Source of the DNA: Escherichia phage vB_EcoM_G2540-3
Sequence record: MK327944.1
DNA length: 64,000 nucleotides
Direction: 5' to 3' (one strand)
Positions 15,166 to 54,760 of this stretch are shown here, in pieces. Under the pieces are notes generated by a model, which saw nothing but the letters and a program-made list of their open reading frames with translations, did not search any database and was not told the DNA's origin. The translations under genes and the position numbers were made by a program. Position 1 is the first letter of the stretch. Each line of letters opens with the position of its first letter.

Positions 15166-15173
15166 TATTTATA
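15166..15173 (-). promoter_or_regulatory. late promoter (soc)
   Basis: Minus strand TATAAATA about 30 nt before the soc ATG. Confidence 0.7.
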
Positions 15174-16020
15174 AACCATTTTCAAACCTCTTTATCATAT
15201 TTATATAGTTTTCATCGGGATAACCTAGACTAACTGCTAACTTTCTAAAATTGACATATTTAGGTTTGTTGTTATTAATCCATAATTCTCTAAGCTCTTT
15301 TTCATAATTCCATTTAAGTTGATTTCTGCGTGCAGTTTTGCTTAAAGTTTTTCCTTTAGCTTTTAAAGCCTTTTCGGATGACTGTTTTAATTTTTGAATA
15401 TTTAAAACTTCTTCTATAGATAAATTATTTTCCTTTGAATACCTTATGCAAAAATCTTTTACTACGGCTATTAGGCAATTTTTGTGAGTACCTAAAATTT
15501 CTGGATTATTTTCTTCAACTAAAATTCCCCAATATCTTCGGTAGCGAGGCATATCCCTTGAAATCCAGTCATTATACCAAAAATCAAAGTTGGAATACAT
15601 GAAAGATTTTCTTTTGCGAAGAGTATCTTGGTTTATCCATTGCTCACGTTTATCAGCCCATAACTTAATAGTAAAGTCTTTCTCTAAGTCAGAAAGCTTC
15701 TTAAATTGCGAGCTATTTACTGAGGTCATTCTCTGGAATGCATTCAGCAGTCCAAATCTTCCAGTTGAACATAAGAGATAGTGAACATATATGTGTTGAT
15801 ATATTGGGAGATATACTCTATTCCAAGGATATATTTTAAAATCACTATACTCAGGAAATGCGCATTTAGGAAGTATATGATGGGCTTCTGTTTTAGATTT
15901 AATGTTAGTGTTTAACTTATACTTATCTATAATTTTTAAGTACTCATCTAAAAGTTCCCATTGCGGGAACTTTTCTTTAAGAGCAGATTTGAAATTAATA
16001 TCCATTATCTTGACGTTCAA
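15169..16020 (-). CDS. HNH (Mob-type) homing endonuclease, 283 aa
   Basis: EAHHILPK...H motif; C-terminal LRELWINNNKPKYVNFRKLAVSLGYP module shared with four paralogues in the window. Confidence 0.75.
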   Translation of the reverse strand: MNVKIMDINFKSALKEKFPQWELLDEYLKIIDKYKLNTNIKSKTEAHHILPKCAFPEYSDFKIYPWNRVYLPIYQHIYVHYLLCSTGRFGLLNAFQRMTSVNSSQFKKLSDLEKDFTIKLWADKREQWINQDTLRKRKSFMYSNFDFWYNDWISRDMPRYRRYWGILVEENNPEILGTHKNCLIAVVKDFCIRYSKENNLSIEEVLNIQKLKQSSEKALKAKGKTLSKTARRNQLKWNYEKELRELWINNNKPKYVNFRKLAVSLGYPDENYINMIKRFENGL

Positions 16021-16513
16021 AATTATGTTTGTTCTTCAGATAATAAAGTTTAAAGATTTCTTCAGCAGTAAGACCAAGACCTTGGAACATATTCAGAACG
16101 AAATGGAGAATATCAATCATTTCAAATTTAATTTCCAACTGGTCTTGCGGAGACAAATCAGTAATCAGAGTTTCACGACGTTCACCATGCTGCGACTTCC
16201 AAGGTTTCCATACAGCAGATGCATCTTTTTCACCATTACTCATACCACCGAGAGAAGTCAGAAGTTCACGGAATTCATCGTCAATATAATCTTTCTGATT
16301 ACGCAACCAATCAACAACTTCACCGGCAGTAGCCAAGTCATCAGGATGACGATTATATTCAGGTTTATCTTTAGCTAAACGAATCTGCAGAGATTTCTGC
16401 ATGTCAAGCATAACCTGCAGCGGGTCTTTTTCATCACCGAGAATATCCCAATATTCATTTTGAGCTTTATCAGCGCCTTCGATCAGTTGACTACATTCGT
16501 TGAAATGTGGCAT
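15995..16513 (-). CDS. 56: dCTP pyrophosphatase gp56 (MazG-like), 172 aa
   Basis: Size and all-alpha MazG-like sequence; position between soc and gene 61. Confidence 0.8.
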   Translation of the reverse strand: MPHFNECSQLIEGADKAQNEYWDILGDEKDPLQVMLDMQKSLQIRLAKDKPEYNRHPDDLATAGEVVDWLRNQKDYIDDEFRELLTSLGGMSNGEKDASAVWKPWKSQHGERRETLITDLSPQDQLEIKFEMIDILHFVLNMFQGLGLTAEEIFKLYYLKNKHNFERQDNGY

Positions 16514-16514
16514 G

Positions 16515-17165
16515 TTATTTTTCCTTTCTTATGAAGTTTTCTATCATATGTCTATAGCAGATATTAGGATAACCTGCCTTGACAGCTATTTTATTAAATT
16601 TTGTGCGCTTAGGTCTATTATTATAAACCCATAATTCATAAAGCGCATCATAACTATTCCATATTTCTCCTCGCCTAGGATTTGGTAAACCATATCGAGG
16701 CGAATTTTTACCGCTAAATCTTCCTTTTCGGGCTTTACTCATATTAGCCTTGGCTTCATCGGATATAATTTTACCTTTATGAGCTAGACGCATTTTGGCT
16801 TTAGTTTCTTCTGGAGTCTTTTTACCTTTAATCCATGACGGCTTGCCATATCTAGGATTATTTTCACCCGAGAAAAGAACAGAGTTTTGGATTTTAAGGG
16901 TTTCTATTAATCTACTTGTTAATTTAACACCTTTATTATATCGCATTAAATTTACAGCATAATGCAATCCTCTCACATCTGGATATATTTTAGTTAATAA
17001 TCTATGAGCTATAAAATGCTCACGCGCAGTTAACTCAACAAGATTGTTTTTGCCATCTGCTCCTCCCATACATCTAGGAATTATATGATGGCGTTCTTTA
17101 TATCCGCCAAGATGCCGGCATTTAGCTTTTGTAATTAAAGCCGAGTAAATTTTTTGGTAATTCAC
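16515..17165 (-). CDS. HNH (Mob-type) homing endonuclease, 216 aa
   Basis: HHIIPRCMGG...NLVELTAREHFIAH motif; MotA-box middle promoter upstream. Confidence 0.8.
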   Translation of the reverse strand: MNYQKIYSALITKAKCRHLGGYKERHHIIPRCMGGADGKNNLVELTAREHFIAHRLLTKIYPDVRGLHYAVNLMRYNKGVKLTSRLIETLKIQNSVLFSGENNPRYGKPSWIKGKKTPEETKAKMRLAHKGKIISDEAKANMSKARKGRFSGKNSPRYGLPNPRRGEIWNSYDALYELWVYNNRPKRTKFNKIAVKAGYPNICYRHMIENFIRKEK

Positions 17166-17198
17166 ATATATCCTTTCAATTCATGGGTTAGTAGATTA

Positions 17199-17222
17199 AT
17201 TATACAATAAATATATAAAGCA
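17199..17222 (-). promoter_or_regulatory. MotA-box middle promoter (before HNH gene 16515..17165)
   Basis: Minus strand TATTGCTTTAT, 13 nt, TATAAT. Confidence 0.5.
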
Positions 17223-17235
17223 ATAAGGAGGACAT

Positions 17236-19256: not shown

Positions 19257-19549
19257 TATTCACCTACCACTTCAGCGATGATATTTTTATTATTGAAGTT
19301 TTTATCGCAATACAGAACGTAATTATACTGCATTACACCACCAGACTTAAGCTGTTTTTGCACTTCAGCTTTCATTTCAGGACGATCACGCTCAACGATA
19401 TTCATAATATCTGCTTCAATCTGAGTTTCAACCTCAGTCTGATCTGCAGTCATAGACCATTCGCACAAATCTTTATCATAACCTGCCATAGCAGGCTGAG
19501 CAGCGCAAGAAGCTAAAGCAAAAATTGCAGCAAAAACAAATTTTTTCAT
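19256..19549 (-). CDS. sp: periplasmic protein, 97 aa, likely Spackle (Sp)
   Basis: Signal peptide MKKFVFAAIFALASCAAQPAMA; 97 aa; position between 61 and 41; RBS GGAG; early promoter at 19578..19607. Confidence 0.55.
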   Translation of the reverse strand: MKKFVFAAIFALASCAAQPAMAGYDKDLCEWSMTADQTEVETQIEADIMNIVERDRPEMKAEVQKQLKSGGVMQYNYVLYCDKNFNNKNIIAEVVGE

Positions 19550-19577
19550 GATAATCTCCTCAGTAGTTTATGTTTAT

Positions 19578-19607
19578 ATAGTATCTCAATTTCTAACAAA
19601 AGTAAAC
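19578..19607 (-). promoter_or_regulatory. T4-type early promoter (before the sp-like gene)
   Basis: Minus strand GTTTAC, 18 nt, TACTAT. Confidence 0.6.
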
Positions 19608-19861
19608 TATTTTATTTCCTCAAGTTCGTTAATCAATAAAAGTTCTCTGACGCTAAAAACAAAGAAAAATGTGTTCCCATCAACCAGAGCATGACCGCTA
19701 ATAGAACACCCTCTGCGGAATTTAGAAACTTCACAATCTAGAACTGTAAAGGGTTTTAATCCTATGACTTTAGCTGTGCGTCTATTCAGTTCACAACCAC
19801 TTGCGAATTTTTCCAAATCTTCTTCTGATTTAAACTGATATTCTCTATTAACTAGCATCAT
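19607..19861 (-). CDS. hypothetical protein, 84 aa
   Basis: ORF with RBS GGAG and early promoter at 19893..19922. Confidence 0.5.
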   Translation of the reverse strand: MMLVNREYQFKSEEDLEKFASGCELNRRTAKVIGLKPFTVLDCEVSKFRRGCSISGHALVDGNTFFFVFSVRELLLINELEEIK

Positions 19862-19892
19862 TTTCTTTTCTCCGCGATTAGCTGATAGAATT

Positions 19893-19922
19893 ACTATAAC
19901 ACAACTCTATCAGCTTGTAAAC
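19893..19922 (-). promoter_or_regulatory. T4-type early promoter with -10 inside a 9-bp inverted repeat
   Basis: Minus strand GTTTAC, 18 nt, TATAGT; arms GCTGATAGA and TCTATCAGC. Confidence 0.6.
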
Positions 19923-19924
19923 TA

Positions 19925-20167
19925 CTATTTTACTAGCATCAATAACTGTTTCTCTAACTTGACGATTTTACGAAAGTATCTTTTGCATTGGCGAATCTGT
20001 CGCTTCGTAGGGCGCACAGCAAACTTAATAAATTCCACTCGACCAAATGGAGGACTTTCTTCTGCTGGAATATCTAACACCAATTCCCACGTATCCGCAA
20101 TAAGTGCCTTGAATTGAGTATTTTTCCTGACATTATACGGAGTAGGTTTAAATAAAACAATATGCAT
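19925..20167 (-). CDS. hypothetical protein, about 80 aa
   Basis: Start set at ATG 20167 just after the upstream stop. Confidence 0.45.
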   Translation of the reverse strand: MHIVLFKPTPYNVRKNTQFKALIADTWELVLDIPAEESPPFGRVEFIKFAVRPTKRQIRQCKRYFRKIVKLEKQLLMLVK

Positions 20168-20168
20168 A

Positions 20169-20351
20169 TTATCCTCGGCAATCCACTTCACATACTTTCT
20201 TGTCATCAATGAAAGCTTTAACTAGCGCTTTATTAACTTCAGCATATTGAGTAGTAGCCCATTGAACGTCATCTTTCATCATTGTGATTTCTTTAGTAAA
20301 CATGCTTTCATTCTTAAACCACCCCATAAAAACTACCTTTACCAATTCCAT
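20169..20351 (-). CDS. dmd: Dmd-like antitoxin (discriminator of mRNA degradation), 60 aa
   Basis: 60-aa ORF in the 61.5 position with RBS GAGGAG and its own early promoter. Confidence 0.55.
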   Translation of the reverse strand: MELVKVVFMGWFKNESMFTKEITMMKDDVQWATTQYAEVNKALVKAFIDDKKVCEVDCRG

Positions 20352-20380
20352 AAAAATCTCCTCATTTAACCAACAAGACT

Positions 20381-20410
20381 ACTATACCATAGTCTTGTCA
20401 GCTTGTAAAC
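20381..20410 (-). promoter_or_regulatory. T4-type early promoter (dmd) with -10 inside an 8-bp inverted repeat
   Basis: Minus strand GTTTAC, 18 nt, TATAGT; arms CAAGACTA and TAGTCTTG. Confidence 0.6.
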
Positions 20411-23436: not shown

Positions 23437-24279
23437 TTAATCAACTGCTATTGGATGAATAGCATTAAACTTATGAAACGCTTCTGATTTTTCTTTGCGC
23501 GAAACACACATGCGAAGAACCTTTAATGGCTCATCTTCTTCACCCAACGATTTTCTCTTTTCAATATTCGATGTTTTCCAACGAGCTTGCTCTGGAAATT
23601 CTCTATTGATTTGCTCAAGCGCTCTATTATGTTTAGAATTACTACGAATTGAGCTGCATCCGCCAGGAGCTTGTGCTTTTCCGGATACAACCAGATATTT
23701 GAACAAGGCCAAATGTGGATAACCTTGATTAATTAAATTGAGAAATGCATACATATCTTCGCATAAATCAATTTTTCCATACCCAATTTGTTCTGTTGTA
23801 AGTTTTCCAAGGTCATACCATGTATTCGTGAATCCATATGAATTTTCACGATAATTACCCCAAGATGAAGTAATTTTAAAAATAGGTAGACGAGCATGGC
23901 CATGATAATACCCGCAATCCATGGCATCTTCAACGTATTGAATTAATTCATAGAACTGTTCACGGGTTAATTGATTAATTTTATCTACGCAGCGACGATC
24001 ATCTTTCTTTCGCATTGAACTCATACGAATAGTAGTATCATCATCGATCATCCAAATTCGCTGACCTGCATACATATCAGTAATTGCTTTACGAGTTCCA
24101 GCAATTCCATTAACATCATCAGGAATAGTTATAATTTTAGCTCTAGACCCATAAGCGTCATAATAAGCTTTTTCTTCGTGTTTACGTACTACAATATGAG
24201 GTTCATAATCAGATGGAAACATATCAAGGGCAGAAACTGCCCCTACGCGTTGATAGCTCGGAATTACGAATTGAATCAT
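23437..24279 (-). CDS. GT-A-type glycosyltransferase (DxD), 280 aa; candidate beta-glucosyl-HMC-alpha-glucosyltransferase of T2/T6 type
   Basis: IWMIDDDTT DxD motif; sits where T4 carries beta-gt (between uvsX and gene 42) but is not T4 beta-gt-like. Confidence 0.5.
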   Translation of the reverse strand: MIQFVIPSYQRVGAVSALDMFPSDYEPHIVVRKHEEKAYYDAYGSRAKIITIPDDVNGIAGTRKAITDMYAGQRIWMIDDDTTIRMSSMRKKDDRRCVDKINQLTREQFYELIQYVEDAMDCGYYHGHARLPIFKITSSWGNYRENSYGFTNTWYDLGKLTTEQIGYGKIDLCEDMYAFLNLINQGYPHLALFKYLVVSGKAQAPGGCSSIRSNSKHNRALEQINREFPEQARWKTSNIEKRKSLGEEDEPLKVLRMCVSRKEKSEAFHKFNAIHPIAVD

Positions 24280-24917
24280 TTAAGTGCCTTGCATTTGTCA
24301 AAATGGTATCTTGTCATATTTGGCCCACGTCCTTTTAGTCCGCAATGCGGACATATTTTTTCTATCAAATTATGAGGTTTTCCTTTACGATTTTTAGACA
24401 TCGTTTCTTTAATTATTTTAGCTTTTTCTGCGCCAAAAATTTCTTCATAAGTTTTACCAGAATTTTCCTTTGCTCGATTTATAATTCCATATGCCTGCTC
24501 ATTTTTACCATACATTGGATTACCTTCGCCTTTCATTCTTTTAGAATGATCAGGACGCTTGATTCCACGAAAGGCATTTCCGCACTTATATCTTTCTTCT
24601 GGAGATAGTTTTTTACCGTACATTCCATTTAATTTGCCTGGAAAACTTCCTCCCCATGCTTCATTCTTTAAATTATATGAATCCGGACAATTAGCAGCAT
24701 CTAAACAAGTTAAAATAATTTCTTCAACCTGTCTAAACATTGGTCCTTCATATAATATTTCTTTATTAAAGGATTTTATTCCATATTTCTTTTTAGCATG
24801 TTGCCAAACTACACCCGAACCATCATAATTCGGGTTGTGACCATCATGACTTCCTATATACCACTTTTTAGTTTTAGGATGTTTATACTTATAAACATGT
24901 GGCACATTTACTTCCAT
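24276..24917 (-). CDS. GIY-YIG homing endonuclease (Seg-like), 213 aa
   Basis: N-terminal VYKYKHPKTKKWYIGS GIY-YIG motif; C-terminal zinc-finger-like CPHCG. Confidence 0.75.
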   Translation of the reverse strand: MEVNVPHVYKYKHPKTKKWYIGSHDGHNPNYDGSGVVWQHAKKKYGIKSFNKEILYEGPMFRQVEEIILTCLDAANCPDSYNLKNEAWGGSFPGKLNGMYGKKLSPEERYKCGNAFRGIKRPDHSKRMKGEGNPMYGKNEQAYGIINRAKENSGKTYEEIFGAEKAKIIKETMSKNRKGKPHNLIEKICPHCGLKGRGPNMTRYHFDKCKALK

Positions 24918-25648
24918 TTTCCAGTATAATCCTTTTTAGCAATATGAGTTTCACCAGTGTTCCACCAATGGTCAACTAAATAAAACTGATTTTCGTACAC
25001 ATGAAGACTTCCAACGTTCCATATAATAGAACCTGCTTTATATTGCCGCGATGGGTCGCCTGCATTCAAATCAGATACTAATTTATCTAATACGTATTTT
25101 TGCCATGCATAGTCATTACGATAGCCTGCCCAGCAATCATTGCTTCTCATGTTAACTACTGCATTGACTTTCTTATCACGAATCAGATACTGTACTGTAT
25201 TCGTACACATGAAATCTGACATACCATCTTTATTGTAGTCAAACTGCATGGATGGACGAGTATAAATCATGATACCACGTCGAGAATCAGGATTTTGACC
25301 AAGTTCAGCTAAACACATATCATACTGGGCATAGTTATCTTCTGACCAGATAGCCCAACCATAATTCGAGTTAATTTCACCTTTAGAAGATGCTACCTGT
25401 TGCCAAATCTTTGGCGTTTCGCCTGGAATATCTTTAACAAACAGACTTTGAGACTTATACCATTCAAGTTCACGTTGAATGTATTCATCATTAAGAGCAC
25501 CAAAAATAAAAGGTTCATCTGCTACAAATGATGCGCCAATAATTTCAATAGTTTTAACACCAGTTTTATCAACTACGAAATCTTTTTCCTTTAATGCAAT
25601 TCCCAAATGAAGACGGGTTTCTTCAACTGTCATAGAGTCATTAATCAT
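24908..25648 (-). CDS. 42: dCMP hydroxymethylase gp42, 246 aa
   Basis: Thymidylate-synthase-like fold, 246 aa as in T4 gp42. Confidence 0.85.
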   Translation of the reverse strand: MINDSMTVEETRLHLGIALKEKDFVVDKTGVKTIEIIGASFVADEPFIFGALNDEYIQRELEWYKSQSLFVKDIPGETPKIWQQVASSKGEINSNYGWAIWSEDNYAQYDMCLAELGQNPDSRRGIMIYTRPSMQFDYNKDGMSDFMCTNTVQYLIRDKKVNAVVNMRSNDCWAGYRNDYAWQKYVLDKLVSDLNAGDPSRQYKAGSIIWNVGSLHVYENQFYLVDHWWNTGETHIAKKDYTGKWK

Positions 25649-26060: not shown

Positions 26061-26441
26061 TCACTTAGTCAAATTTTTTACACATGAATTATAAGAATTT
26101 ACTACATACTCCATCGGAGCATTTTTACCAGTACGCCATTGATAATTATTAGCCCAATTTGCCCAAAGCACGGCGCAGTAATTTTCAATTTTTTCTTCGC
26201 GTGTAATTACATCTGAATTACGATATGCTTGTGCAGATTCATCTGGACGAATAGCTTCGTCAAAATTCGCCTGCATTTGTTCTACTGTCTGTTTTGGAGC
26301 TTCTTTATAACACTTAACATTAGGATTATAAAATTTGCTTGAACAGTTTACAATTTTTCCTACATCAGATTGATTTACTACCGGTCCTTGAGCTACACAA
26401 CCAGTAAGACCCAATGCAATAACCAAAATAGCGATTTTCAT
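26061..26441 (-). CDS. lipoprotein, 126 aa
   Basis: MKIAILVIALGLTGC lipobox; start trimmed to ATG 26441, since the ORF-track N-terminal extension is translated promoter/leader DNA. Confidence 0.55.
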   Translation of the reverse strand: MKIAILVIALGLTGCVAQGPVVNQSDVGKIVNCSSKFYNPNVKCYKEAPKQTVEQMQANFDEAIRPDESAQAYRNSDVITREEKIENYCAVLWANWANNYQWRTGKNAPMEYVVNSYNSCVKNLTK

Positions 26442-34426: not shown

Positions 34427-35281
34427 TCACAATGAAGAAAATTCTTTAACTAAAGCCTGTAATGAAGCCTCTATTGGATATCCATTCTTAACTAACATTT
34501 TCCTAAACATTACATGTTTAGGACGATTATATGATATCCACAATTCATACAATTTATCTTTATTATCCCAATGATAGCCTTTTCGTCGAGATGCTATATG
34601 AGCTTTTCTAATCTCCGGATTTTTCCAACTAGCAGCTACTGAATTTGATATAGCTATTTTATATTCAGGTTTTGATAAAGCAGCACGAACAGCCTTTTGG
34701 TGTTTAATTTTATTTTCTTCGTTATTAAACCATTCCCTTGAAGCAATTGAAATTTTTTGTTTTGTTTTAAAATTATTTAATCTTTCTTTGTTATCTTTCC
34801 TATTTTTTGCTACTGAAAAATATTTTAATGCCCTTTCTCTAGCAGCATTTCTATTTTGCGGATTTGAATAATACTGTTGAAGCCTTTTTGATATTGTGTC
34901 ACTTACATCTTGTTTTATAAAACTATATTCAGCAGCTATTAAATCAACTTCGGCTAAAGATAAATTTTTATATGTTTTTCCTGACATCATTCTATTTAAA
35001 GCATTTAGCATTTTTCCATTTTTACCTTTTGCTAATAAGAAATGTGCTTTAAAATGATTAAAATGACTTAAATTAACTAAATTCCATGTAGATTTTAAAT
35101 ATTCAGGAAATATTGATTTAGGAAGCACGTGGTGTGCTTCCGTTTTACCTGGAGTTTTAACAGTTGAATTCATAGAAATAAAATTAATGTAAGACTTGGC
35201 GTCTTCTTCACTCAACGCTAATTTTTCAACTAATTCCTTTATTAAAAATTCATCATTAATGTCAAGTTTAAAATTCTTCAC
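34427..35281 (-). CDS. HNH (Mob-type) homing endonuclease, 284 aa, GTG start
   Basis: EAHHVLPKS...H motif; C-terminal LYELWISYNRPKHVMFRKMLVKNGYP module. Confidence 0.75.
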   Translation of the reverse strand: MKNFKLDINDEFLIKELVEKLALSEEDAKSYINFISMNSTVKTPGKTEAHHVLPKSIFPEYLKSTWNLVNLSHFNHFKAHFLLAKGKNGKMLNALNRMMSGKTYKNLSLAEVDLIAAEYSFIKQDVSDTISKRLQQYYSNPQNRNAARERALKYFSVAKNRKDNKERLNNFKTKQKISIASREWFNNEENKIKHQKAVRAALSKPEYKIAISNSVAASWKNPEIRKAHIASRRKGYHWDNKDKLYELWISYNRPKHVMFRKMLVKNGYPIEASLQALVKEFSSL

Positions 35282-35728: not shown

Positions 35729-36744
35729 TGTGTTGCCTCTACATATAACTGATTTGCATATTGAATAAGTGCTTCACGGTCAGAATCAGTGATGTCTGGA
35801 ATTGCATTAATGTATTCTTCCATCAACGTCTGAAGAGATTGAACTTCAACTTCTTCACTGTCATCTGACTCGACAGAGTTATCAATCTTTGACACAACTC
35901 GTAATGAATGCACAACTTTTTCTAGTTCAGATTCGAACTTCGTCAGATTTTTGTCTACTTCAGTTACTATAACACGTACTGATAGATTTGTAAAATCTTT
36001 ATAGTCAATTTTTCCTTTAAACGGATAATGAATTCTACGATGCCAGGTAGTATTGTTTGGAATAAATTCCATTCGTTCTGTTTCTGTATCAAACATCCAG
36101 AACCCGCGAGGGTCATTCTCGTCACCTGCAGTTAGTGTCCATGGTGTCCCAATATATCTGACGTTAGCAGCCTCAGAGATAGTATGGAAGTGACCAGACC
36201 ACACTTCTTTATAAGTCTTAAGGAAATCAGGTTCAAGACCGTGAGATTTCATTCCTTTATAAAAATAAAATCCATTCAGTTCCCAGTGACCAACACAAAA
36301 AGAAGCAGAAGAAGTTTTTATGTGCTCGAGAATTTCACCAGTATTTTCTTCACACATCCAAGGAATTAAATCAATTAAACATCCGTCAAAATCTACTGTA
36401 GTAGGCTTATCATACACTTTAACATTAGGATATTTAGCCAAAAGCTCAGTAGAAGCATTTGGATGCATTACATTTTTGTAGTGGAGATCGTGATTTCCTA
36501 CAATAGTATGTAATGTGATTCCAGCGTCATCAAGCATTTGAACTATTTCACGGGCAAACTCCATAGTTTTATGTGTAATTGCTTTTCGCACATCAAAAAT
36601 ATCACCATATTGAATCCATACAGTAATTCCATTTTTCTTAGAATATTCTATCGCTTGCTTAATTCCATCAATTTGAATACCGCGAATCCACTCATCATCA
36701 GCTTTAACGCCTAAATGCCAATCACCCAAGTTTAGTATTTTCAT
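35725..36744 (-). CDS. 47: recombination nuclease gp47 (Mre11/SbcD-like), 339 aa
   Basis: Phosphoesterase motifs MKILNLGDWHLG, GDIFD, GNHD; 339 aa. Confidence 0.9.
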   Translation of the reverse strand: MKILNLGDWHLGVKADDEWIRGIQIDGIKQAIEYSKKNGITVWIQYGDIFDVRKAITHKTMEFAREIVQMLDDAGITLHTIVGNHDLHYKNVMHPNASTELLAKYPNVKVYDKPTTVDFDGCLIDLIPWMCEENTGEILEHIKTSSASFCVGHWELNGFYFYKGMKSHGLEPDFLKTYKEVWSGHFHTISEAANVRYIGTPWTLTAGDENDPRGFWMFDTETERMEFIPNNTTWHRRIHYPFKGKIDYKDFTNLSVRVIVTEVDKNLTKFESELEKVVHSLRVVSKIDNSVESDDSEEVEVQSLQTLMEEYINAIPDITDSDREALIQYANQLYVEATQ

Positions 36745-37345
36745 GGTGTCTTTTCCATCCTAATTTAGCTGCTTTTGAAACCAGTTCTTTAATTTTTCCT
36801 TTTGTCCATTCAGGACCAGGAGGTTCATGACATAACATTTGCTTAACTCCGTTATTATACCATTTTTTACCTTTATTATGTGATGAAGCTTTAAATTTAT
36901 TTGACCTTCCTTTTACATAACCTTCTGGAATATAAGGCAAAAAGGCAGATTTTCCTGTTAATGGATCATGTGAATGTATATTTCCTTTACAATTATGAGA
37001 ACCATATAATGGATGATTTTGTCCTTTATTATCTCTTCCAAATGAACCTTTTGGAGCAGCATATGACATATTAAAGAATAATGGATTTTTAACTGCATCA
37101 TGCAATCGTTGATAATATAACTCGCATTTAATAGCTTCTTCACGCGTATCAAATTCAGCTAAAATGCATGAATCAAATAAGTGAGGATTATCTGAAAGCT
37201 CTTTATTATAAATTTTCTTATACTTTTTAGATAAAACTGAACCATGATATCCAGCTAAATGCCTATCTAAAGACGTAGATCCAATATAAAAAGGAGGAAG
37301 TTTATCTCCGCTATATATTGTTAAATAAGTTATATATTTTTTCAT
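36722..37345 (-). CDS. GIY-YIG homing endonuclease (Seg-like), 207 aa
   Basis: N-terminal YITYLTIYSGDKLPPFYIGST... GIY-YIG-like motif. Confidence 0.65.
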   Translation of the reverse strand: MKKYITYLTIYSGDKLPPFYIGSTSLDRHLAGYHGSVLSKKYKKIYNKELSDNPHLFDSCILAEFDTREEAIKCELYYQRLHDAVKNPLFFNMSYAAPKGSFGRDNKGQNHPLYGSHNCKGNIHSHDPLTGKSAFLPYIPEGYVKGRSNKFKASSHNKGKKWYNNGVKQMLCHEPPGPEWTKGKIKELVSKAAKLGWKRHHENTKLG

Positions 37346-42727: not shown

Positions 42728-42729
42728 AA

Positions 42730-43059: not shown

Positions 43060-43530
43060 TTAATCATGTTTCCACACCCCATCGGTATTTGACCAAAGTC
43101 GCTGATTATCTGATCCTCGCCACAGCTTTTTAGTCGGAAGATTTTTCTCATACTTCCCATCAATAATAACATCAACATATTTAAGCATTTCTAGTTGTTT
43201 AATATCTTCAAACTTATATCCTGTCCACAACCAGATATCTTTCTCCGGAAATCTTGCTTTAACCCAAGAAACTAAATTTGAAATCTCTTCTCGGTTCTGT
43301 GGATAAAGTGGGTCACCACCGGTTAAGGTAAGGCCTTGGATATACGATTTGCTTAAATGGGACGCAAGTTCTTTAACGGTATTCATAGTGAATAACTGTC
43401 CGTTACGAGCATTCCAAGTACTACGATTATAACAACCTTCGCATTTATGCAAACATCCAGTGACGAAGAGAACGACCCTACATCCAGGGCCGTTAACGAA
43501 ATCGCATGGATAAATTCTATCATAATTCAT
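43060..43530 (-). CDS. nrdG: anaerobic ribonucleotide reductase activase NrdG (radical SAM), 156 aa
   Basis: CxxxCxxC cluster CLHKCEGC after MNYDRIYPCDFVNGPG; start trimmed to ATG 43530. Confidence 0.85.
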   Translation of the reverse strand: MNYDRIYPCDFVNGPGCRVVLFVTGCLHKCEGCYNRSTWNARNGQLFTMNTVKELASHLSKSYIQGLTLTGGDPLYPQNREEISNLVSWVKARFPEKDIWLWTGYKFEDIKQLEMLKYVDVIIDGKYEKNLPTKKLWRGSDNQRLWSNTDGVWKHD

Positions 43531-44152
43531 CTTTATATTTCCAAGTATATCCCTTATGAATAGATTGAATTCCTTTGCAACATTTATAAACAGCAGAATG
43601 AAAAAATCCTGCATTTCTTATTTCAGTTGCTCCAGTTAGTTCTATTGTATTTCCGTCTGGTGAATAGCCAATAACCGTTTTGGTGTTAAAGCGATTTCTA
43701 GAACTATTTTTGATATGCTCTTTATGATTAGTAGACAAAGTTCTTCCTGTTAGCCCATCAGATATCCTTTTTCCAAAATCATCAGGAAGAGTTACTTTAG
43801 ACCTAGCTATGCTCATTAGCTTCTTAGTTTTATCGCTTCTTTTTGCGCCACGCTGATTTTCAAATTTCTTAGCTTTTGCATACGCGTATTGTGAAGAAGT
43901 AACTTTTCTATGCTTACTATTACTCATTATCCAATATGCATCATACATCTTTCCACCATATATTTTAGCCAATAAATGGTGAGCAGTATAGTGGGCCTTA
44001 TAAGTTAAAAATACTAAGTTGTCTAAATCATCTGAACCACCCATACTTCTTGGAATTATATGATGAAGTTCATACCCGGCTTTAGTTTGACGGGGCTTAG
44101 ATGGGTGTTCAGCAGAATTAACTAGATTTGAATAGATTCTGTCATAATTCAT
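43520..44152 (-). CDS. HNH (Mob-type) homing endonuclease, 210 aa
   Basis: HHIIPRSMGGSDDLDNLVFLTYKAHYTAH motif; inserted between nrdD and nrdG. Confidence 0.8.
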   Translation of the reverse strand: MNYDRIYSNLVNSAEHPSKPRQTKAGYELHHIIPRSMGGSDDLDNLVFLTYKAHYTAHHLLAKIYGGKMYDAYWIMSNSKHRKVTSSQYAYAKAKKFENQRGAKRSDKTKKLMSIARSKVTLPDDFGKRISDGLTGRTLSTNHKEHIKNSSRNRFNTKTVIGYSPDGNTIELTGATEIRNAGFFHSAVYKCCKGIQSIHKGYTWKYKDEL

Positions 44153-47407: not shown

Positions 47408-47417
47408 TTTTCACCAA

Positions 47418-47627
47418 TTAATTTCGCAATTTATTAAGTTCTTCATCATCAATCCAGGATTCTAGTCCTGATGGCAGGTCACATTCAATTTCCCAAAGAA
47501 GTTCTTCAATTTTCTGAAGACGATCTAGTTCTTCGGCTGGAATAGTAACCATTGACGGAGCTCGTGATACATTAATATCGTAAATCATATTTACCCCAGT
47601 TTGACCATGCAATCGCCGTATTTCCAC
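47418..47627 (-). CDS. hypothetical protein, 69 aa
   Basis: ORF only. Confidence 0.45.
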   Translation of the reverse strand: MEIRRLHGQTGVNMIYDINVSRAPSMVTIPAEELDRLQKIEELLWEIECDLPSGLESWIDDEELNKLRN

Positions 47628-47806
47628 TTAGAAATAGACTTTTCGCCATTAGAATAATAAACTTCGAGTTTAGCACGATTATTTTTAATTTGAATAACCT
47701 TGGCTGTCATCAAAGTTCCATACCCATAATAAACTGCAACTTCATCACCTACATATACCGCGCTTCCGCGGTAATCATGAATATAGTCAGTTCCTTCGAG
47801 CATCAT
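47591..47806 (-). CDS. hypothetical protein, 71 aa
   Basis: ORF coupled to nrdC. Confidence 0.45.
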   Translation of the reverse strand: MMLEGTDYIHDYRGSAVYVGDEVAVYYGYGTLMTAKVIQIKNNRAKLEVYYSNGEKSISKWKYGDCMVKLG

Positions 47807-48611: not shown

Positions 48612-49540
48612 TTCAATATCTCAATAGCATTACGTAAACCATTTGCTTTTGCATTAAGAGCTTTTAACAATTTGGTGTGTTCTGCAATTTGGGCTTCAAC
48701 TTCAATCAAACGAGCATTGAGATATTCGCGTTCTTCACTCAGATTATCAACCTTTTCTACTTTAGGCTCTTTTACAACTGTCTTATATGTATTAGGGTTC
48801 TTCAGTTTAATTAGAATGCGTGAACTGTATAACATTGAACCATTATCTTCGGTTTCGTCATACATTTCCACTACGTCCATAATTTTTAACATCATGCGGA
48901 GTTTATAAGACAACGAACGAATAGTTTTGTTGTGCTTATTAATTTCTTTAGCTGTCATGGTGCCAAGATTACGTGAGTAATAATAAGGAACCTGGATATT
49001 AATTAATACTGATGAACCACCTGGCTTGTGTGTTACTTCATCAGCAATAACCCAGTCCTTAACATGAACTGTATTTGTACGGTCATCGCCCGCGGTAAAT
49101 AGTTTGCGAGCATGCTTAAAAAGCATATTCACTTGGTCATTGAATTGACAAGCAAATTTATCAGCAAATTTAGTTTCAGGAATGGTAGAAAACCAATCAG
49201 CCAAATGAGTCTTTTTAACATCATTAACAATAGTAAATTCAACCAAATCGGTTATAGATGTCTCAGATTTAATGAAGCTCGGCTTCATAAAGTTTTTAAT
49301 GTTCTCATGAGCTACAGTAGAAGATAACATACGAGAACGTTTAAACCATTCAAGCAAATTGCCTAACGAATGAGAATAAGCGTTTTGAGTATCTTTACAG
49401 ATATGATTTTCCTGACCAACATATTGAAGGAAATCACGAAGAATATTATTATTGATTACTGCCCTGTGTCCTATCTGATAATTACGATGTTTAGTAATAA
49501 GACTGTCAAAATAATCAATATAATGTTTACGAGTTTTCAT
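48608..49540 (-). CDS. hypothetical protein with C-terminal coiled coil, 310 aa
   Basis: Long ORF; C-terminal heptad-like region EEREYLNARLIEVEAQIAEHTKLLKAL. Confidence 0.55.
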   Translation of the reverse strand: MKTRKHYIDYFDSLITKHRNYQIGHRAVINNNILRDFLQYVGQENHICKDTQNAYSHSLGNLLEWFKRSRMLSSTVAHENIKNFMKPSFIKSETSITDLVEFTIVNDVKKTHLADWFSTIPETKFADKFACQFNDQVNMLFKHARKLFTAGDDRTNTVHVKDWVIADEVTHKPGGSSVLINIQVPYYYSRNLGTMTAKEINKHNKTIRSLSYKLRMMLKIMDVVEMYDETEDNGSMLYSSRILIKLKNPNTYKTVVKEPKVEKVDNLSEEREYLNARLIEVEAQIAEHTKLLKALNAKANGLRNAIEILK

Positions 49541-49548
49541 GGTGTTCC

Positions 49549-50460
49549 TTAAGATTTAAGTAAATCAACAATTTTAATTAACTTTTCACGCTCAGATTTA
49601 GCTTTACTACTCAGTCCAGATAGTCTGAAAATTTCATCATCATATTGTTGAATAGAAATATTCAGCTCTTCAATCTGTTTATTAAAATAATCAATTTGTT
49701 CAGAATGTTTTTCGTTACTACGAACTGATACAGGTTTTGTAGGCAATTTAGTTGAACTAGATTCATCCGGGCGATAAATTAAAATACAACTTGAACCAAT
49801 TGGACATTTTGCACCAGATGAATATTCTAATGTTCCGGCTTCTTTTAAAACTTCAAAAGCTAAACAGAGATGATGCCCCATATTAACATAATCAGTAGAG
49901 CGAGCTCTGATGTAATAATCATCTCCGCGAATACTAAATTTAAAGCATTTAAGGTCTTCTGTATTATTGGTCTTAAAAATCATTTGTTTATTTAGACCTT
50001 TAGCTAATCGAGCGCCTAATGCTAATAATCGTCGTTGATTTTCCCACAAATCTGCGATCATTTGGTCAAATGATAATTTCGGCATTAGTCGACCATAAAG
50101 GTCATATCCTTTATTATAATTACGAAGGATTTCACTCGCATTAATACGAGACAATGCTCCAATTTTATTAAGGGCTTTCATAATGCGATTAGATAAACTC
50201 ATTCCAGATCCGTTTGTTCGCTGCAAATGTTTTTCTAATCCAAATCCAATATCAACTTTAAACTTATCTAAAATTTCTGCATGAACATCTCTGTCAATAA
50301 CATTCAAATCCAAAGTTGAGTTAAATCTATGAAAAAATTTATCTGGCTCTGCACTGCGAAATACAGTCCATTCATTCATCATTTTTTTATTAACTAAAGA
50401 TTTAATTACTGCATTGACATTATTAATTACTACTGACATATTTTCCTCACTCAATTTCAA
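49549..50460 (-). CDS. hypothetical protein with C-terminal coiled coil, 303 aa
   Basis: Long ORF; C-terminal coiled-coil-like region. Confidence 0.55.
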   Translation of the reverse strand: MKLSEENMSVVINNVNAVIKSLVNKKMMNEWTVFRSAEPDKFFHRFNSTLDLNVIDRDVHAEILDKFKVDIGFGLEKHLQRTNGSGMSLSNRIMKALNKIGALSRINASEILRNYNKGYDLYGRLMPKLSFDQMIADLWENQRRLLALGARLAKGLNKQMIFKTNNTEDLKCFKFSIRGDDYYIRARSTDYVNMGHHLCLAFEVLKEAGTLEYSSGAKCPIGSSCILIYRPDESSSTKLPTKPVSVRSNEKHSEQIDYFNKQIEELNISIQQYDDEIFRLSGLSSKAKSEREKLIKIVDLLKS

Positions 50461-50854
50461 TTTTACTAAATATACAGAATAAGATGGAACAGACTATATA
50501 AGCACCACACACAGATTGAACTAATACCATTCCAAAGAACCAAATAATATTATCAAACAGTGTCTGTTTTACGTCGAAAGGACGTAAACTTACAGTAATA
50601 TTATCACCTTTTTCTATTGAAGAATACATCTCTGGGGAAATATATTCACTAAATCTATAACCGTCTTTGAGTTCATATACGGCAATAAACGATAAACTAG
50701 ACCCCTTTCCTTGAGTTCCTGCAAGGGTATTAACTACAGTAACATCATAATCTTTATAATGCATATAATCATTAATAGCATAATAACCATATGCAATTAC
50801 TATACATAAACAACATATCAATAAATTCAATCTTTTAATTATCAACTGTTTCAT
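50447..50854 (-). CDS. membrane protein, 135 aa
   Basis: N-terminal and C-terminal hydrophobic helices. Confidence 0.5.
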   Translation of the reverse strand: MKQLIIKRLNLLICCLCIVIAYGYYAINDYMHYKDYDVTVVNTLAGTQGKGSSLSFIAVYELKDGYRFSEYISPEMYSSIEKGDNITVSLRPFDVKQTLFDNIIWFFGMVLVQSVCGAYIVCSILFCIFSKIEIE

Positions 50855-50909
50855 AATAATCTCAATTAAAAGGGCTTAGAACCATTATACCATCCTTGGT
50901 ATAAAGCAG

Positions 50910-51437
50910 TTATGCGAGTACCGTCTTTAACCGTTCTTCAAACTTCCGAAGAGTATTCTGGCGTTCAGCTCTTTGCTTTTTGTAAGTTTCAATACGTTCT
51001 GAAATGAGAGTGTATCGTTCATTTACTGATTCTTTCATAAAATCAGGAATTTCACGAGAAGCTTTAATCTCGTCAAATTTATCAATAACAGCTTGCTCTT
51101 CAGCAATTAAGTTATCATACATCAAAATATCTTTCTTGATGAACTCAATATCTTCTTGAGTTACACGAGATAATTTAGATGCTTTATCCTTTTTGTACTG
51201 TTCGTTAGTATCACGAGACCAGTGTAATGTACGATTTTTATTCGTATTCTTGTAAATTTCTACAATACCAATCTCATCAATAATAACGATCCAATTCCAA
51301 CGAGATTTGTAAATTTGCCCTCCGTCAACCGTGATTTCACCTCCGATTGAGATGTCATTAAAGAACTTGCTTTGTGCTTCAGATTTAAATTTACCATCGT
51401 TGTAATTTACCGGGTTGAAAATATCTTTAGCGTTCAT
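50910..51437 (-). CDS. hypothetical protein, 175 aa
   Basis: RBS GGAGG; early promoter at 51465..51494. Confidence 0.55.
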   Translation of the reverse strand: MNAKDIFNPVNYNDGKFKSEAQSKFFNDISIGGEITVDGGQIYKSRWNWIVIIDEIGIVEIYKNTNKNRTLHWSRDTNEQYKKDKASKLSRVTQEDIEFIKKDILMYDNLIAEEQAVIDKFDEIKASREIPDFMKESVNERYTLISERIETYKKQRAERQNTLRKFEERLKTVLA

Positions 51438-51464
51438 TTGTGTTCCTCCGTAGTTGATAGTTGT

Positions 51465-51494
51465 ATAGTACCACAGAGGAACAGTCTTGTAAAC
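51465..51494 (-). promoter_or_regulatory. T4-type early promoter
   Basis: Minus strand GTTTAC, 18 nt, TACTAT, followed by ACAACTATCAACT. Confidence 0.6.
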
Positions 51495-51496
51495 AA

Positions 51497-51811
51497 CTAA
51501 AAGAAACTTCTTTCACAATTTTTTCCACTGAACCAAGCGCTCACTGCTTTCTTAGTCTCAGGAGCAGTGTTATCCATAAACCATTCAAAGGCAGCCTTTT
51601 TATGATTCTGGAGGGCTTCTCGGGCTTTAATCTGCTCACGGTCTATTAACACTAACATATGAGCCTTTCTTGTCACCAAGGGCTTCTTATGATTCTTGGA
51701 GTATTCCCAGTCATTTGTCCAACGCATTGTCGTTGCGAACTGATGAATCGCGTCTTTAATTTTAGTTTCATAAATTTCACGAGCCTTTGAGTATAACATC
51801 ACTACCTCCAT
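51497..51811 (-). CDS. hypothetical protein, 104 aa
   Basis: ORF only. Confidence 0.45.
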   Translation of the reverse strand: MEVVMLYSKAREIYETKIKDAIHQFATTMRWTNDWEYSKNHKKPLVTRKAHMLVLIDREQIKAREALQNHKKAAFEWFMDNTAPETKKAVSAWFSGKNCERSFF

Positions 51812-51900
51812 TTACCAGTTTAATTCTAATCATCTTTTTGATGGCAGTCCATATAATCTATTTCTGAACTGCCTTTTTGTCATAGAAGTCCTCTTATGAA

Positions 51901-52869
51901 TTATTTCAGAAGAGTAACCTCAGCAATTTCTTCCCAACCGTTTTTGTCGGTCATAATAAAGTCAGCAAGATAAAGAGCAGTACGCAGTGAAACATTGCGT
52001 AAACGATTAACATTAACTTTCATCCATGATAATGCTTTATAAGTTTCTTCATCAGAAAGACCGCGCTTTTGCATCATGTCAGTTGAAAGAATAACATCTT
52101 CAACCCTGACCATAATTTCTTCATTAGTGTGAACACCCAAATCCAAATAAACCGAGCGGGACACTAATGCTTGTAAATGTGGAGCAAGTTTAGTACCACG
52201 GTCTAATTCGCGGTCAATGTCAACGTTTGTGATAAAAACAATCGTTCCTTTAAATTCAAACTCACGCTCAATGCCTTTTTCTTCTAAGTAAGAAGACGCA
52301 GTGCTCCAGCAGACTTTACGGGTCTCTCCGGTGTCCAGAGCAGCTTTCAGAAGATTAAGAATGTCCATATCAGAGAAAACATCCACATCATCAATCAAAA
52401 GGACAGAATTCTCTTCACGATTATTCCAAAGCTGTTCATAAAGACCAATACCAGAGATTTTACCATTAATGCTTTTATATTCAATGTATCCAATATCATT
52501 TGCTTTATTTAAAGCTTTATCTAAAGAATACGTTTTACCAATGCCTGCCGCACCAGAGATAATTAATGAACGAATGTTTCCGTTAATAATACCATTCGTC
52601 ATCATTCCCATAACATTAAATCTTTTATTAATGCGGGTTTTCATATCTTCATACGATTCTTTAACTTCTTCAACTTTTACACCATCATATGAAATGTCTG
52701 ATTTGTAAACCCAAACACCGCGACGTTTACCGTCAATTTCAACAAAAACTTTACCATCTCCTTGTGCATCTACTGGAGCATTATCTGGGAACCATTCGCC
52801 TAAGAGCTCAAAAGTTCCAGAGATTTCTTTACCGAAGTAGATACCCTTATTGATAGTTACAGTTTTCAT
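51901..52869 (-). CDS. P-loop (AAA-like) ATPase, 322 aa
   Basis: Walker A GAAGIGKT and Walker B LLIDDVD; start trimmed to ATG 52869 after RBS GGAG. Confidence 0.6.
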   Translation of the reverse strand: MKTVTINKGIYFGKEISGTFELLGEWFPDNAPVDAQGDGKVFVEIDGKRRGVWVYKSDISYDGVKVEEVKESYEDMKTRINKRFNVMGMMTNGIINGNIRSLIISGAAGIGKTYSLDKALNKANDIGYIEYKSINGKISGIGLYEQLWNNREENSVLLIDDVDVFSDMDILNLLKAALDTGETRKVCWSTASSYLEEKGIEREFEFKGTIVFITNVDIDRELDRGTKLAPHLQALVSRSVYLDLGVHTNEEIMVRVEDVILSTDMMQKRGLSDEETYKALSWMKVNVNRLRNVSLRTALYLADFIMTDKNGWEEIAEVTLLK

Positions 52870-52903
52870 TTTATTCTCCAAATCCGTATCAGTTGATAGT
52901 TGT

Positions 52904-52933
52904 ATAGTACCATAAAGCTTTATGCTTGTAAAC
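52904..52933 (-). promoter_or_regulatory. T4-type early promoter with conserved leader module
   Basis: Minus strand GTTTAC, 18 nt, TACTAT, followed by ACAACTATCAACTGATACGGATTTGGAGAATAAA-ATG. Confidence 0.6.
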
Positions 52934-52956
52934 AATTTTGTGAAAAAATTTTTGAA

Positions 52957-52984
52957 ATAAAAAAAAGGGAGCCCGAAGGCTCCC
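52957..52984 (-). terminator. intrinsic terminator after 52987..53997
   Basis: Minus RNA GGGAGCC-UUCG-GGCUCCC followed by UUUUUUUUAUUU. Confidence 0.8.
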
Positions 52985-52986
52985 TA

Positions 52987-53997
52987 TCATTTATAATAAC
53001 TTCGGTGGTTTTCAAGATAAACCTGTTCGAGGAAATTATTCCAAAAGCTCATATCTACTGTTTTAGGCATACCATTCTTAGAAGCTTCAGTAGATGCTGC
53101 TTCTACTTGATCGACCACATCTTCCAAAAACTCTTGAACTGTTTTAAATGGATGTTTACCCAACTTCACGTCGAGAATAAATGGAGCATCTTGGAGTGGA
53201 TAAACCAAGTCACCAGTTTTGTAAATTTCCAATAGTTGAAGTCCACCACGACAAGCATGACTCAGAGCTTTCCAGTCAATACCTTCATTGGCTTCGGCCT
53301 TACGAGCACGTTCACCATATTCAGCATCTAATTTGTTCAGTGACTGCTTAAGCTCAATAAGAGAAAGAGTTGTCTGATATTTACGACCCAACACTGTGTA
53401 AAACGTTTGTGGGCCTGTTTTCTCATGATTATGGAACACCCATTCACAGAATTCGTTTTCTGGAAGACGATGCTTAATATCTTCAACTTTAGTACGACGC
53501 TGCTTAATGGAACCGTCTTCTTGGTAATCAACCCATTGCTCAGGGATTTGATTAACTACTTTCAATACATCGCGTAATGCAGCCAAACGAGAACCCTTGA
53601 CACCATATTTAGAAGCTTGCTTGCGGACATATCCTAAATAGGATTTCATGTTAGTCGTATAAAAACGAGAACGGTTGTCTTGAATAAACTTCCACACATC
53701 AGGCAAATCAGATTTAACCACTAGTTCAGGTGGAGTGTGAAGCATATCCAATGCTACAGTTTCACCATCTACTGCTAATTTAAAGAAATATTTAAGACTG
53801 TATAGTTCATGGTCAATATCATCTTTAGTGTTTTTAGATGATGTGTTGTTGGTATTTTTACTCATATGCTCTTTAACATTTCCGATAAGAATATCACGAG
53901 CAGGAGGAACAAAGATTTCTTTAAAATCTACATCAGATTCTGGGGTAGAAGTTCCATAAAGATGACTACCAAAATAAGACTTAACTACAGTTTTCAT
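52987..53997 (-). CDS. Pol-beta-superfamily nucleotidyltransferase-fold protein, about 336 aa
   Basis: GS...DVD motif (SYFGSHLYGTSTPESDVDF) typical of minimal nucleotidyltransferases; start set at ATG 53997. Confidence 0.55.
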   Translation of the reverse strand: MKTVVKSYFGSHLYGTSTPESDVDFKEIFVPPARDILIGNVKEHMSKNTNNTSSKNTKDDIDHELYSLKYFFKLAVDGETVALDMLHTPPELVVKSDLPDVWKFIQDNRSRFYTTNMKSYLGYVRKQASKYGVKGSRLAALRDVLKVVNQIPEQWVDYQEDGSIKQRRTKVEDIKHRLPENEFCEWVFHNHEKTGPQTFYTVLGRKYQTTLSLIELKQSLNKLDAEYGERARKAEANEGIDWKALSHACRGGLQLLEIYKTGDLVYPLQDAPFILDVKLGKHPFKTVQEFLEDVVDQVEAASTEASKNGMPKTVDMSFWNNFLEQVYLENHRSYYK

Positions 53998-54760
53998 TAT
54001 TAGACCTTTCATAATCTTCATTAAATTGTACAATCAATCGATGATAATTAGATTTTGGATATCCTAATTTACTTATATAAGTTCCGAATGACCCACGTTT
54101 AGGTCTATTTAATTTAATCCATAACTTATAAAGTAAGTCATAGTCTTGCCAATGTTTACCAGTTCTTTGTCTAATTTTAGATGAATTTGATTGTTTCTTT
54201 TTAGTTTCAAAATTATTCAAAGATTTTTTGACTGCAGCAGAGTGTTTTTCTTTAACTCCCGGTCGTTTAAAAGCAGCTTTCACCCCTTTAGATATTTTTT
54301 CTTTAACTTCCGGTTTGTTTTGTGCTTCTAACTGGGATTCTGAAATTTTAGCCCTTATTTCAGGAAGACTTAATGTTATCGAACGTTTTTCTCTGTATTC
54401 ATTAGACTTCCACATTTCTTTCATTGTATTAGAATGTATTTTTGAAAATTTTTCTCTAACTAACTGATATCCTCTTGAAGTTAATTTGAGATTTCTTCCT
54501 AAAGAATCTTCTCCAAAATTATAAAATGACCACCATGCATAAATTAATCCAGGCGAATTATAATGAATTTTAGCTAAAAGCCAATGGGCTATAAAATGCT
54601 CTCTAGCTGTTAATAAAACTAGATTATCAGAATCATCATTACCACCAATACAAGATGGAATAATATGATGCTTTTCCGTATAAAAATTTAATTTAGATTT
54701 ATCTAATTTTCTGAGTTTTCCTTTCTTAATTAAATTATTATATACTTTAGTATAATTCAT
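53981..54760 (-). CDS. HNH (Mob-type) homing endonuclease, 259 aa
   Basis: HHIIPSCIGGNDDSDNLVLLTAREHFIAH motif; C-terminal LLYKLWIKLNRPKRGSFGTYISKLGYP module. Confidence 0.8.
   Translation of the reverse strand: MNYTKVYNNLIKKGKLRKLDKSKLNFYTEKHHIIPSCIGGNDDSDNLVLLTAREHFIAHWLLAKIHYNSPGLIYAWWSFYNFGEDSLGRNLKLTSRGYQLVREKFSKIHSNTMKEMWKSNEYREKRSITLSLPEIRAKISESQLEAQNKPEVKEKISKGVKAAFKRPGVKEKHSAAVKKSLNNFETKKKQSNSSKIRQRTGKHWQDYDLLYKLWIKLNRPKRGSFGTYISKLGYPKSNYHRLIVQFNEDYERSNNENCS

Follow-up and report, generated by a model that had tools for sequence, protein, structure and literature searches.

Whether the homing endonuclease genes (HEGs) of a T-even phage form a reshuffled mobile complement or merely the typical content of its lineage is the question raised by a 64,000-nucleotide stretch of Escherichia phage vB_EcoM_G2540-3 (MK327944.1; the whole stretch is hereafter called the window), in which a preliminary description had noted a high density of such genes at positions that differ from those in T4. 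Patchy sets of Seg and Mob HEGs that drive local marker exclusion have been textbook biology of the T-even phages since the 2000s. Our analysis leads us to propose, with a probability of roughly 85% judged from sequence comparison, that the window carries seven free-standing HEGs of the two T-even classes, of which mobC and mobD occupy their T4 sites and the other five belong to a pool of HEGs shared among Tequatroviruses, and that this set is a recombinational mosaic, with intronless homing as the probable mechanism.

The window spans rIIA to e, the early region of a Tequatrovirus, and its genes lie on the minus strand. Comparison by blastn revealed that positions 12 to ~67,300 of T4 (NC_000866) are colinear with the window at ~92-98% identity, with limited indels and replacements, and a megablast search with positions 15000-39000 matched more than 500 Tequatrovirus genomes at 95-99% identity, the best being Escherichia phage G28; the maximum query coverage by any record was 92%. 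All seven HEG open reading frames (ORFs) reported in the preliminary description are present, intact and on the minus strand at the coordinates given there, five of them encoding Mob-type HNH proteins and two encoding Seg-type GIY-YIG proteins (Table 1). Each sits between conserved early genes in the same orientation as its neighbours, and these neighbouring genes had been named correctly. When all stop-to-stop ORFs of at least 40 amino acids (aa) in six frames were compared by BLASTP with 15 T4 HEGs and the seven HEGs of the window, no HEG-like ORF or remnant beyond the seven was detected in the window. Nor was the gathering score of any Rfam family, group I introns included, attained in any part of the window, and since it is without an Rfam group I intron, all seven HEGs are free-standing. 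They have the properties expected of this type of element, in that they lie between conserved genes and that close relatives vary in whether the fixed site of each is occupied. The nrdD gene is a single uninterrupted ORF of 605 aa, from which the I-TevII intron of T4 is missing (45428-45431). Intron-encoded HEGs of the I-TevI, I-TevII or I-TevIII type were ruled out on the grounds of the zero Rfam hits and the unbroken nrdD. The reported high density of HEGs did not hold up, as it equals that of T4, in which the homologous 64 kb also contains seven (mobA, segF, segA, mobB, mobC, I-TevII and mobD), and Yersinia phage fPS-2 likewise has seven in the interval compared below.

Table 1. HEGs of the window and the sequence features linked to them, with the number of database records that contain each HEG in the same context as a fraction of all matching records (HMC, hydroxymethylcytosine).
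Feature	Position	Strand	Description	Same-context/matching records
HNH1	15169..16020	-	Mob-type HNH HEG between soc and gene 56 (ORF, phrog_655, BLASTP)	27/723
HNH2	16515..17165	-	Mob-type HNH HEG between gene 56 and gene 61; GTG start	29/671
Candidate promoter	17199..17223	-	Candidate T4 middle (MotA-dependent) promoter upstream of HNH2, read from sequence	
GIY1	24276..24917	-	Seg-type GIY-YIG HEG between the beta-glucosyl-HMC-alpha-glucosyltransferase gene (ba-gt) and gene 42	77/506
Gene 42 3' end	24918..25145	-	GIY1-linked allele of the dCMP hydroxymethylase gene; predicted co-conversion tract	
HNH3	34427..35281	-	Mob-type HNH HEG between gene 46 and 46.1; GTG start	71/559
GIY2	36722..37345	-	Divergent GIY-YIG HEG between gene 47 and 47.1/a-gt (47/47.1 site)	68/523
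nrdG part nearest mobC	43195..43530	-	mobC-linked allele (fixed differences, block identities)	
mobC	43520..44152	-	T4 HNH HEG between nrdD and nrdG, T4 site; without LYELW module	31/837
mobD	53981..54760	-	T4 HNH HEG upstream of nrdC.11 (nucleotidyltransferase), T4 site	46/535

The view that the HEGs occupy positions different from those in T4 was borne out for five of the seven, whereas mobC and mobD are T4 genes at T4 sites. The MobC protein is 100% identical to its T4 counterpart and is encoded in a colinear block that is 98% identical to T4, while MobD is 99.6% identical and lies in a colinear block of 95.6% nucleotide identity; both genes have the same flanks, nrdG/nrdD for mobC and nrdC.11/mobD.1 for mobD, and the same orientation as in T4, with nothing of substance different. 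The mobile complement as a whole is nevertheless unlike that of T4, as had been proposed, in that the mobA/gene-60 split, segF, segA, mobB and the I-TevII intron are missing and five other HEGs are present instead. The T4 arrangement cited in support of this proposal, with segF between soc and gene 56 and dam between genes 56 and 61, was confirmed in the T4 sequence, and the slot taken by HNH1 is the segF slot of T4. With regard to the gene 60 region, the large-subunit gene of topoisomerase II (2447-4267, minus strand) is a single ORF of 606 aa in the window; the missing T4 insertion (T4 2793-3911), which splits genes 60 and 39, contains the 50-nucleotide (nt) translational bypass ('hop'), 60.1 and a defective mobA.

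Alignment of the flanks with empty-site alleles, an approach already suggested in the preliminary description, defined the insertion boundaries of the five non-T4 HEGs. In place of the HNH1 insert (~15175-15993), phage HEMP5, which is HEG-less but shares the soc allele of the window, has 140 bp. The likely start of HNH1 is the ATG at 16005 (278 aa), as annotated in fPS-2 and PhiZZ23, and not the TTG at 16020. The insert containing HNH2 (~16529-17170, ~642 bp) fills a slot that is empty in PhiZZ23, and comparison with the same phage delimits a GIY1 insert of 630 bp (~24282-24911). HNH3 and GIY2 are pure insertions, the former relative to T4 and fPS-2 (~861 bp, ~34403-35263, with a junction overlap of 9 nt) and the latter relative to T4, fPS-2 and T2 (~594 bp, ~36745-37338); GIY2 starts within the 3' end of gene 47, the overlap being 23 nt.

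To count records with each HEG in the same context, the HEG was queried together with ~430 bp of both flanks, such that coverage of at least 80% requires the HEG to be at the site. Each HEG proved to be polymorphic, present or absent at a single fixed site, with a minority of the matching records (4-15%) carrying it (Table 1); these counts include redundant entries, among them RefSeq/GenBank duplicates and T4 variants from laboratories. In most of the remaining records both flanks were matched and the HEG was missing. The homologous mrh-to-tk interval of five other genomes was then scanned with the HEG library for comparison with the complement of the window (HNH1, HNH2, GIY1, HNH3, GIY2, mobC and mobD). 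In this interval T4 has six HEGs (segF, segA, mobB, mobC, I-TevII and mobD) and fPS-2 has seven, namely HNH1, HNH2, GIY1, mobB, I-TevII and two seg-like genes at nrdG/nrdD and nrdD/49 (28856-29590 and 32520-33341 of the compared sequence), whose slots are empty in the window. Five are present in G28 (GIY1, HNH3, GIY2, mobD and a plus-strand HNH gene between 45.2 and gene 46, at 19285-20001 of the compared sequence, a slot that is also empty in the window), three in PhiZZ23 (HNH1, HNH3 and GIY2) and one in T2 (MH751506), where a frameshifted copy of HNH3 at 46/46.1 (20102-20954 of the compared sequence) is split into T2_55 and T2_56.

In the known carriers, comprising fPS-2 (g028c, g030c and g042c), PYPS2T, G28 (gp044, gp057 and gp061), PhiZZ23 (gp030, gp057 and gp061) and T2 (T2_55/56), the HEG proteins are 98.6-100% identical to those of the window and the insertion sites are identical. 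None of these phages has all seven HEGs, and no single record does; since this is so, the HEG set of the window reads as a recombinational mosaic of which only the combination is specific to it. When the sequence was compared in 500-bp blocks, the HEG interiors were 99.6-100% identical between carriers and the backbone was typically 95-98% identical, a difference that recent lateral spread would give and that is consistent with super-Mendelian inheritance and co-conversion of flanks. The interior of HNH2 matches fPS-2 (100% identical across 16501-17000), those of GIY1, HNH3 and GIY2 match G28 (99.8% nucleotide identity for HNH3 and 100% identity for GIY2), that of mobC matches T4, and that of mobD both T4 and G28. 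The nearest relative shifts from block to block. From soc to 61 the window is like fPS-2 and PYPS2T, from 46 to a-gt it is like G28 and PhiZZ23, and across nrdG/mobC/nrdD it is like T4. The complete arrangement soc-HNH1-56-HNH2-61 is found at 97.9% identity in seven records from Yersinia phages, namely PYPS2T, PYps10T, PYps11T and fPS-2.

These data bear directly on the alternative that the HEGs are vertically inherited, lineage-typical content without recent mobility, the differences from T4 being the outcome of old divergence and occasional deletion. The preliminary description had held that identical insertions at the same sites in the closest relatives would favour such a view, and insertions of this kind are largely what we found, as each element occurs elsewhere at the same site; the seven-HEG combination was the part without a counterpart. 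Decay of the HNH3 copy in T2 and the fact that many T4 HEGs have never been shown to be active (PMC2988022) also fit vertical inheritance. We nevertheless regard it as improbable, because the HEGs are distributed in a patchy and combinatorial manner across backbones that are 95-98% identical, because their interiors are nearly identical to different donors (fPS-2, G28 and T4) in different blocks while adjacent genes are less similar, and because the full set recurs in no record.

Several further observations were made in the soc-56-61 block. The soc gene (14898-15134) is a distinct allele with 43% aa identity to T4 Soc and no nucleotide match to T4. Gene 56 (15995-16513) is unusually polymorphic, with 73-94% nucleotide identity to five relatives whose flanks are at ~96%, and its product is 76% identical to that of T4; among six genomes, its allelic variation does not follow whether HNH1 is there. 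At least three arrangements of the 56/61 slot occur among relatives: it is empty in PhiZZ23, occupied by dam and a 560-bp ORF in T4, T2 and G28, and occupied by HNH2 in the window and fPS-2. The DNA adenine methyltransferase gene dam is not in this slot of the window (16529-17225), and the rest of the genome lies outside the stretch analysed.

Assignment of the HNH genes to the Mob type rests on several lines of evidence. The claim that there are five paralogous genes with an HH..N..H core is supported alike by alignment, which revealed invariant E..HH..P..N.V.L..H...H columns in all five ORFs, by matches of all five proteins to phrog_655 'homing endonuclease' (E = 1e-33 to 1e-59; 4e-33 for HNH1, 4e-59 for HNH2 and 5e-45 for HNH3) and by BLASTP, in which the five match each other and T4 MobB, MobC, MobD and MobE at E = 1e-8 to 1e-33, values that place their paralogy well beyond chance. 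HNH1 matches HNH3 (2e-22) and MobD (2e-8), and HNH3 matches MobD (5e-17). HNH2 is 63% identical to T4 MobE over the N-terminal 81 aa (BLASTP 8e-32) and 46% identical to T4 MobB, and it also matches MobD (9e-33). HNH1, HNH2 and HNH3 are nonetheless separate genes at other sites, with 25-34% full-length identity to MobD, and HNH1 and HNH3 have an N-terminal extension of ~25 aa. The Pfam HNH profile scored above its cut-off for MobC only (27.6 bits), with MobD at 18.2 bits falling below it, and HNH2 contains a NUMOD3 match of 29.4 bits.

All five HNH proteins were previously thought to share a C-terminal LYELW..NRPK..GYP module. This is true of four of them, whereas MobC has a different C-terminus. 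The module, W..LYELW..NRPK..F.K...GYP..Y..LI..F, is present in HNH1, HNH2, HNH3 and MobD, and it aligns with the C-termini of T4 SegA and SegF, the latter of which was termed a 'hybrid' endonuclease in a 2010 review (PMC2988022). Because the module is also found in these GIY-YIG enzymes, it is a shuffled module of DNA-binding type and not a Mob signature. No named domain could be assigned to it, as Pfam at E <= 10 returned only noise and NCBIfam nothing useful. An AlphaFold2 model of HNH2, built from a shallow multiple sequence alignment of five sequences, had a mean predicted local distance difference test score (pLDDT) of 62.7 and places three short helices at residues 172-215 (pLDDT ~75-83) after a disordered NUMOD3 linker. 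A Foldseek search of the PDB with this model returned only weak matches to HNH domains (best E = 0.36) and none to the C-terminal helices, so that the predicted fold is supported as far as 'HNH plus a small helical domain' and no further.

The two GIY-YIG genes were also described correctly, since both match T4 Seg proteins by BLASTP and keep the GIY/YIG, Glu and Asn positions in an alignment with SegA-G, I-TevI and I-TevII. GIY1 contains the motifs VYKY..YIGS..E..YN, matches T4 SegC, SegB, SegA, SegD and SegE (6e-12 to 3e-6) and phrog_314 (2e-31), and has only a weak NUMOD3 match in Pfam; its N-terminal GIY-YIG domain is 31-44% identical to those of SegA-E. GIY2 is more divergent, with the motifs YITY..YIGS..E..FN, a Pfam GIY-YIG score of 21.4 bits that is just under the cut-off of 22.6, a BLASTP match to SegG (8e-5; 27% identity in the N-terminal GIY-YIG domain) and matches to phrog_10820 (1e-94) and phrog_314 (5e-18). 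RefSeq annotations and phrog_10820 often give it the wrong label, 'HNH endonuclease'. Like their Seg counterparts, both genes are intergenic and encode a NUMOD3-like linker, but they differ from the T4 seg genes in their insertion sites (ba-gt/42 and 47/47.1) and in their DNA-binding halves.

Judging from the characterised members of the family, intronless homing of these elements, with its cleavage, targets and super-Mendelian inheritance, would take place during mixed infection with a related phage that is HEG-less at the site. In that phage, a conserved gene next to the insertion site would be cut by a GIY-YIG enzyme, or nicked by an HNH enzyme, at a distance of tens to hundreds of bp from the site. 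Repair by recombination, with the genome of the carrier as template, would then copy the HEG together with the DNA up to the cut, giving co-conversion and marker exclusion, while the carrier would be protected by sequence differences at the target. The Seg and Mob enzymes of T4 drive such homing and marker exclusion and cleave hundreds of bp from their genes (PMC2988022; PMC2330249), HEGs are located at boundaries of genetic exchange between phages (PMC10448857), and the patchy, recombination-driven spread of free-standing HEGs in T-even phages is known (PMC2988022, PMC10448857).

Divergent HEG-linked alleles that may point to such targets were detected among the six genomes on one side of two HEGs. 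The first is in gene 42, adjacent to GIY1, where 41 fixed differences between genomes with and without the HEG are concentrated in the last ~230 bp (24916-25165), with one more beyond. This allele has 83-85% nucleotide identity to the HEG-less genomes and 97.6-100% to carriers, and it changes the protein at residues 172-176 (VVFGF to CWAGY) as well as replacing ST by PS and SRH by ENQ. Asp179, which we take to be the catalytic residue of T4 gp42, is conserved in the GIY1-linked allele and lies three residues past the first changed block. Identity to the 228-bp gene 42 segment is bimodal across 543 records, with 86 at >=95%, a single one at 90-95% and 420 at 80-90%; the number in the first class is similar to that of GIY1 carriers (77). 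We therefore predict from the sequence that the GIY1 cleavage region in HEG-less phages would be at or just beyond the distal edge of this tract, at ~25120-25160. The second allele is in nrdG, in which the 335 bp proximal to mobC contain 95 fixed differences between genomes with and without mobC and are 99% identical to T4 and ~81% identical to four genomes without mobC. Taken jointly, the proposals that GIY1 cleaves HEG-less gene 42 ~220-250 bp from its insertion site, with carriers possessing a discrete resistant allele, and that mobC targets nrdG are tentative, and we would not be surprised to see the pair fail.

With respect to the DNA adjoining GIY1, the glucosyltransferase gene beside uvsX (23437-24279) encodes a beta-glucosyl-HMC-alpha-glucosyltransferase of the T2/T6 type (280 aa) and not the T4 beta-gt product, and T4 segA is missing. 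Because of the enzyme type, a T2/T6-like gentiobiosyl modification of the DNA is implied.

Some points weigh against intronless homing of all seven elements. In addition to the redundancy of the database counts noted above, T4 mobC and mobD have been listed as 'activity not determined, target unknown' (PMC2988022). HNH1, HNH2 and HNH3 gave no match to Pfam HNH at E <= 0.01, and HNH1 and HNH3 are without the GG.D stretch that the remaining Mob proteins possess, so that some of these proteins could be inactive. The divergent flanks of GIY1 and mobC could reflect the import of a larger foreign cassette instead of immunity at the target site. Finally, few or no fixed flank differences linked to HNH1, HNH3 or GIY2 were found in the six genomes, and for this reason we propose no target for these three.

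The atypical cores of HNH1 and HNH3 that go unrecognised by Pfam are also what might be expected if some of the ORFs had been domesticated or were decaying and no longer homing, perhaps serving as DNA-binding regulators, promoter carriers or nucleases directed against competitors or host defences. There are precedents for such roles, as the retention of T4 HEGs is favoured by the promoters embedded in them, from which essential genes downstream are expressed (PMC2988022), and SegB aids the escape of T6 from a bacterial defence (PMC13096335). HNH2, for its part, seems to have its own middle promoter, which matches the T4 type well and is composed of TTGCTTTA, an 11-nt spacer and TATAAT, and followed by a putative Shine-Dalgarno sequence (AAAGGA) 7 nt before the GTG; a 'predicted middle promoter' is annotated at the homologous place in fPS-2. 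However, none of the seven ORFs is truncated, each keeps its catalytic positions (His/Asn or Tyr/Glu/Asn) and the genes are nearly identical across carriers, which makes this a very unlikely explanation, and such roles would in any case be compatible with homing. That the combination arose when sequences of two or more Tequatroviruses occurring together were assembled into a chimera, as the change of nearest phage from block to block and the lack of a database record with the full HEG set might suggest, is scarcely credible, because T-even phages are normally mosaic in this way, as the reference genomes are relative to one another, the gene order is fully colinear, and no genes are duplicated or truncated at the block borders.

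Other differences between the window and T4 do not involve HEGs. The nrdC.4 and nrdC.5 genes are deleted (window 49529-49547; T4 49866-51984), and neither of the internal protein genes, ipII and ipIII, is present (window 63144-63151; T4 65359-66454). Small insertions or replacements with ORFs of 60-105 aa are present at 19614-19944, 40291-40552, 42420-42745, 47414-47802 and 57940-58504, and they also occur in G28, fPS-2 and PhiZZ23, examples being the G28 gp037 'goF-like' ORF and RB14ORF65. Intergenic repeats of ~50-105 bp occur within the window at 5847-5951, 14802-14886, 26435-26527, 51447-51495 and 52863-52957, and they match unrelated intergenic places in T4 at 76-100% identity (for example 70614-70720, 27007-27100, 55314-55406 and 58725-58811). 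These repeats may be promoter/stem-loop cassettes of the kind known from T4-type phages.

The occurrence of different HEG sets and slots in T-even relatives has been described since 2002-2010, and the finding made here is therefore real but ordinary. The five non-T4 HEGs are unnamed and are found in dozens of public genomes, where they are mostly annotated as homing or HNH endonucleases; a search of the literature returned no experimental characterisation of any of them. According to a 2010 review, T4 is an outlier in its number of HEGs (PMC2988022), a view that the window and fPS-2 mildly contradict, at least for the early region, in which a T4-level HEG load is not unique to T4. Although the value of the analysis beyond cataloguing is little, the HEG-linked flank alleles provide target predictions that are cheap to test for two uncharacterised endonucleases, GIY1 (gene 42) and MobC (nrdG). 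Should both targets prove true, T4 would cease to be exceptional among T-even phages in its HEG load, and HEGs would force protein-level change beside the active site of an essential DNA-modification enzyme.

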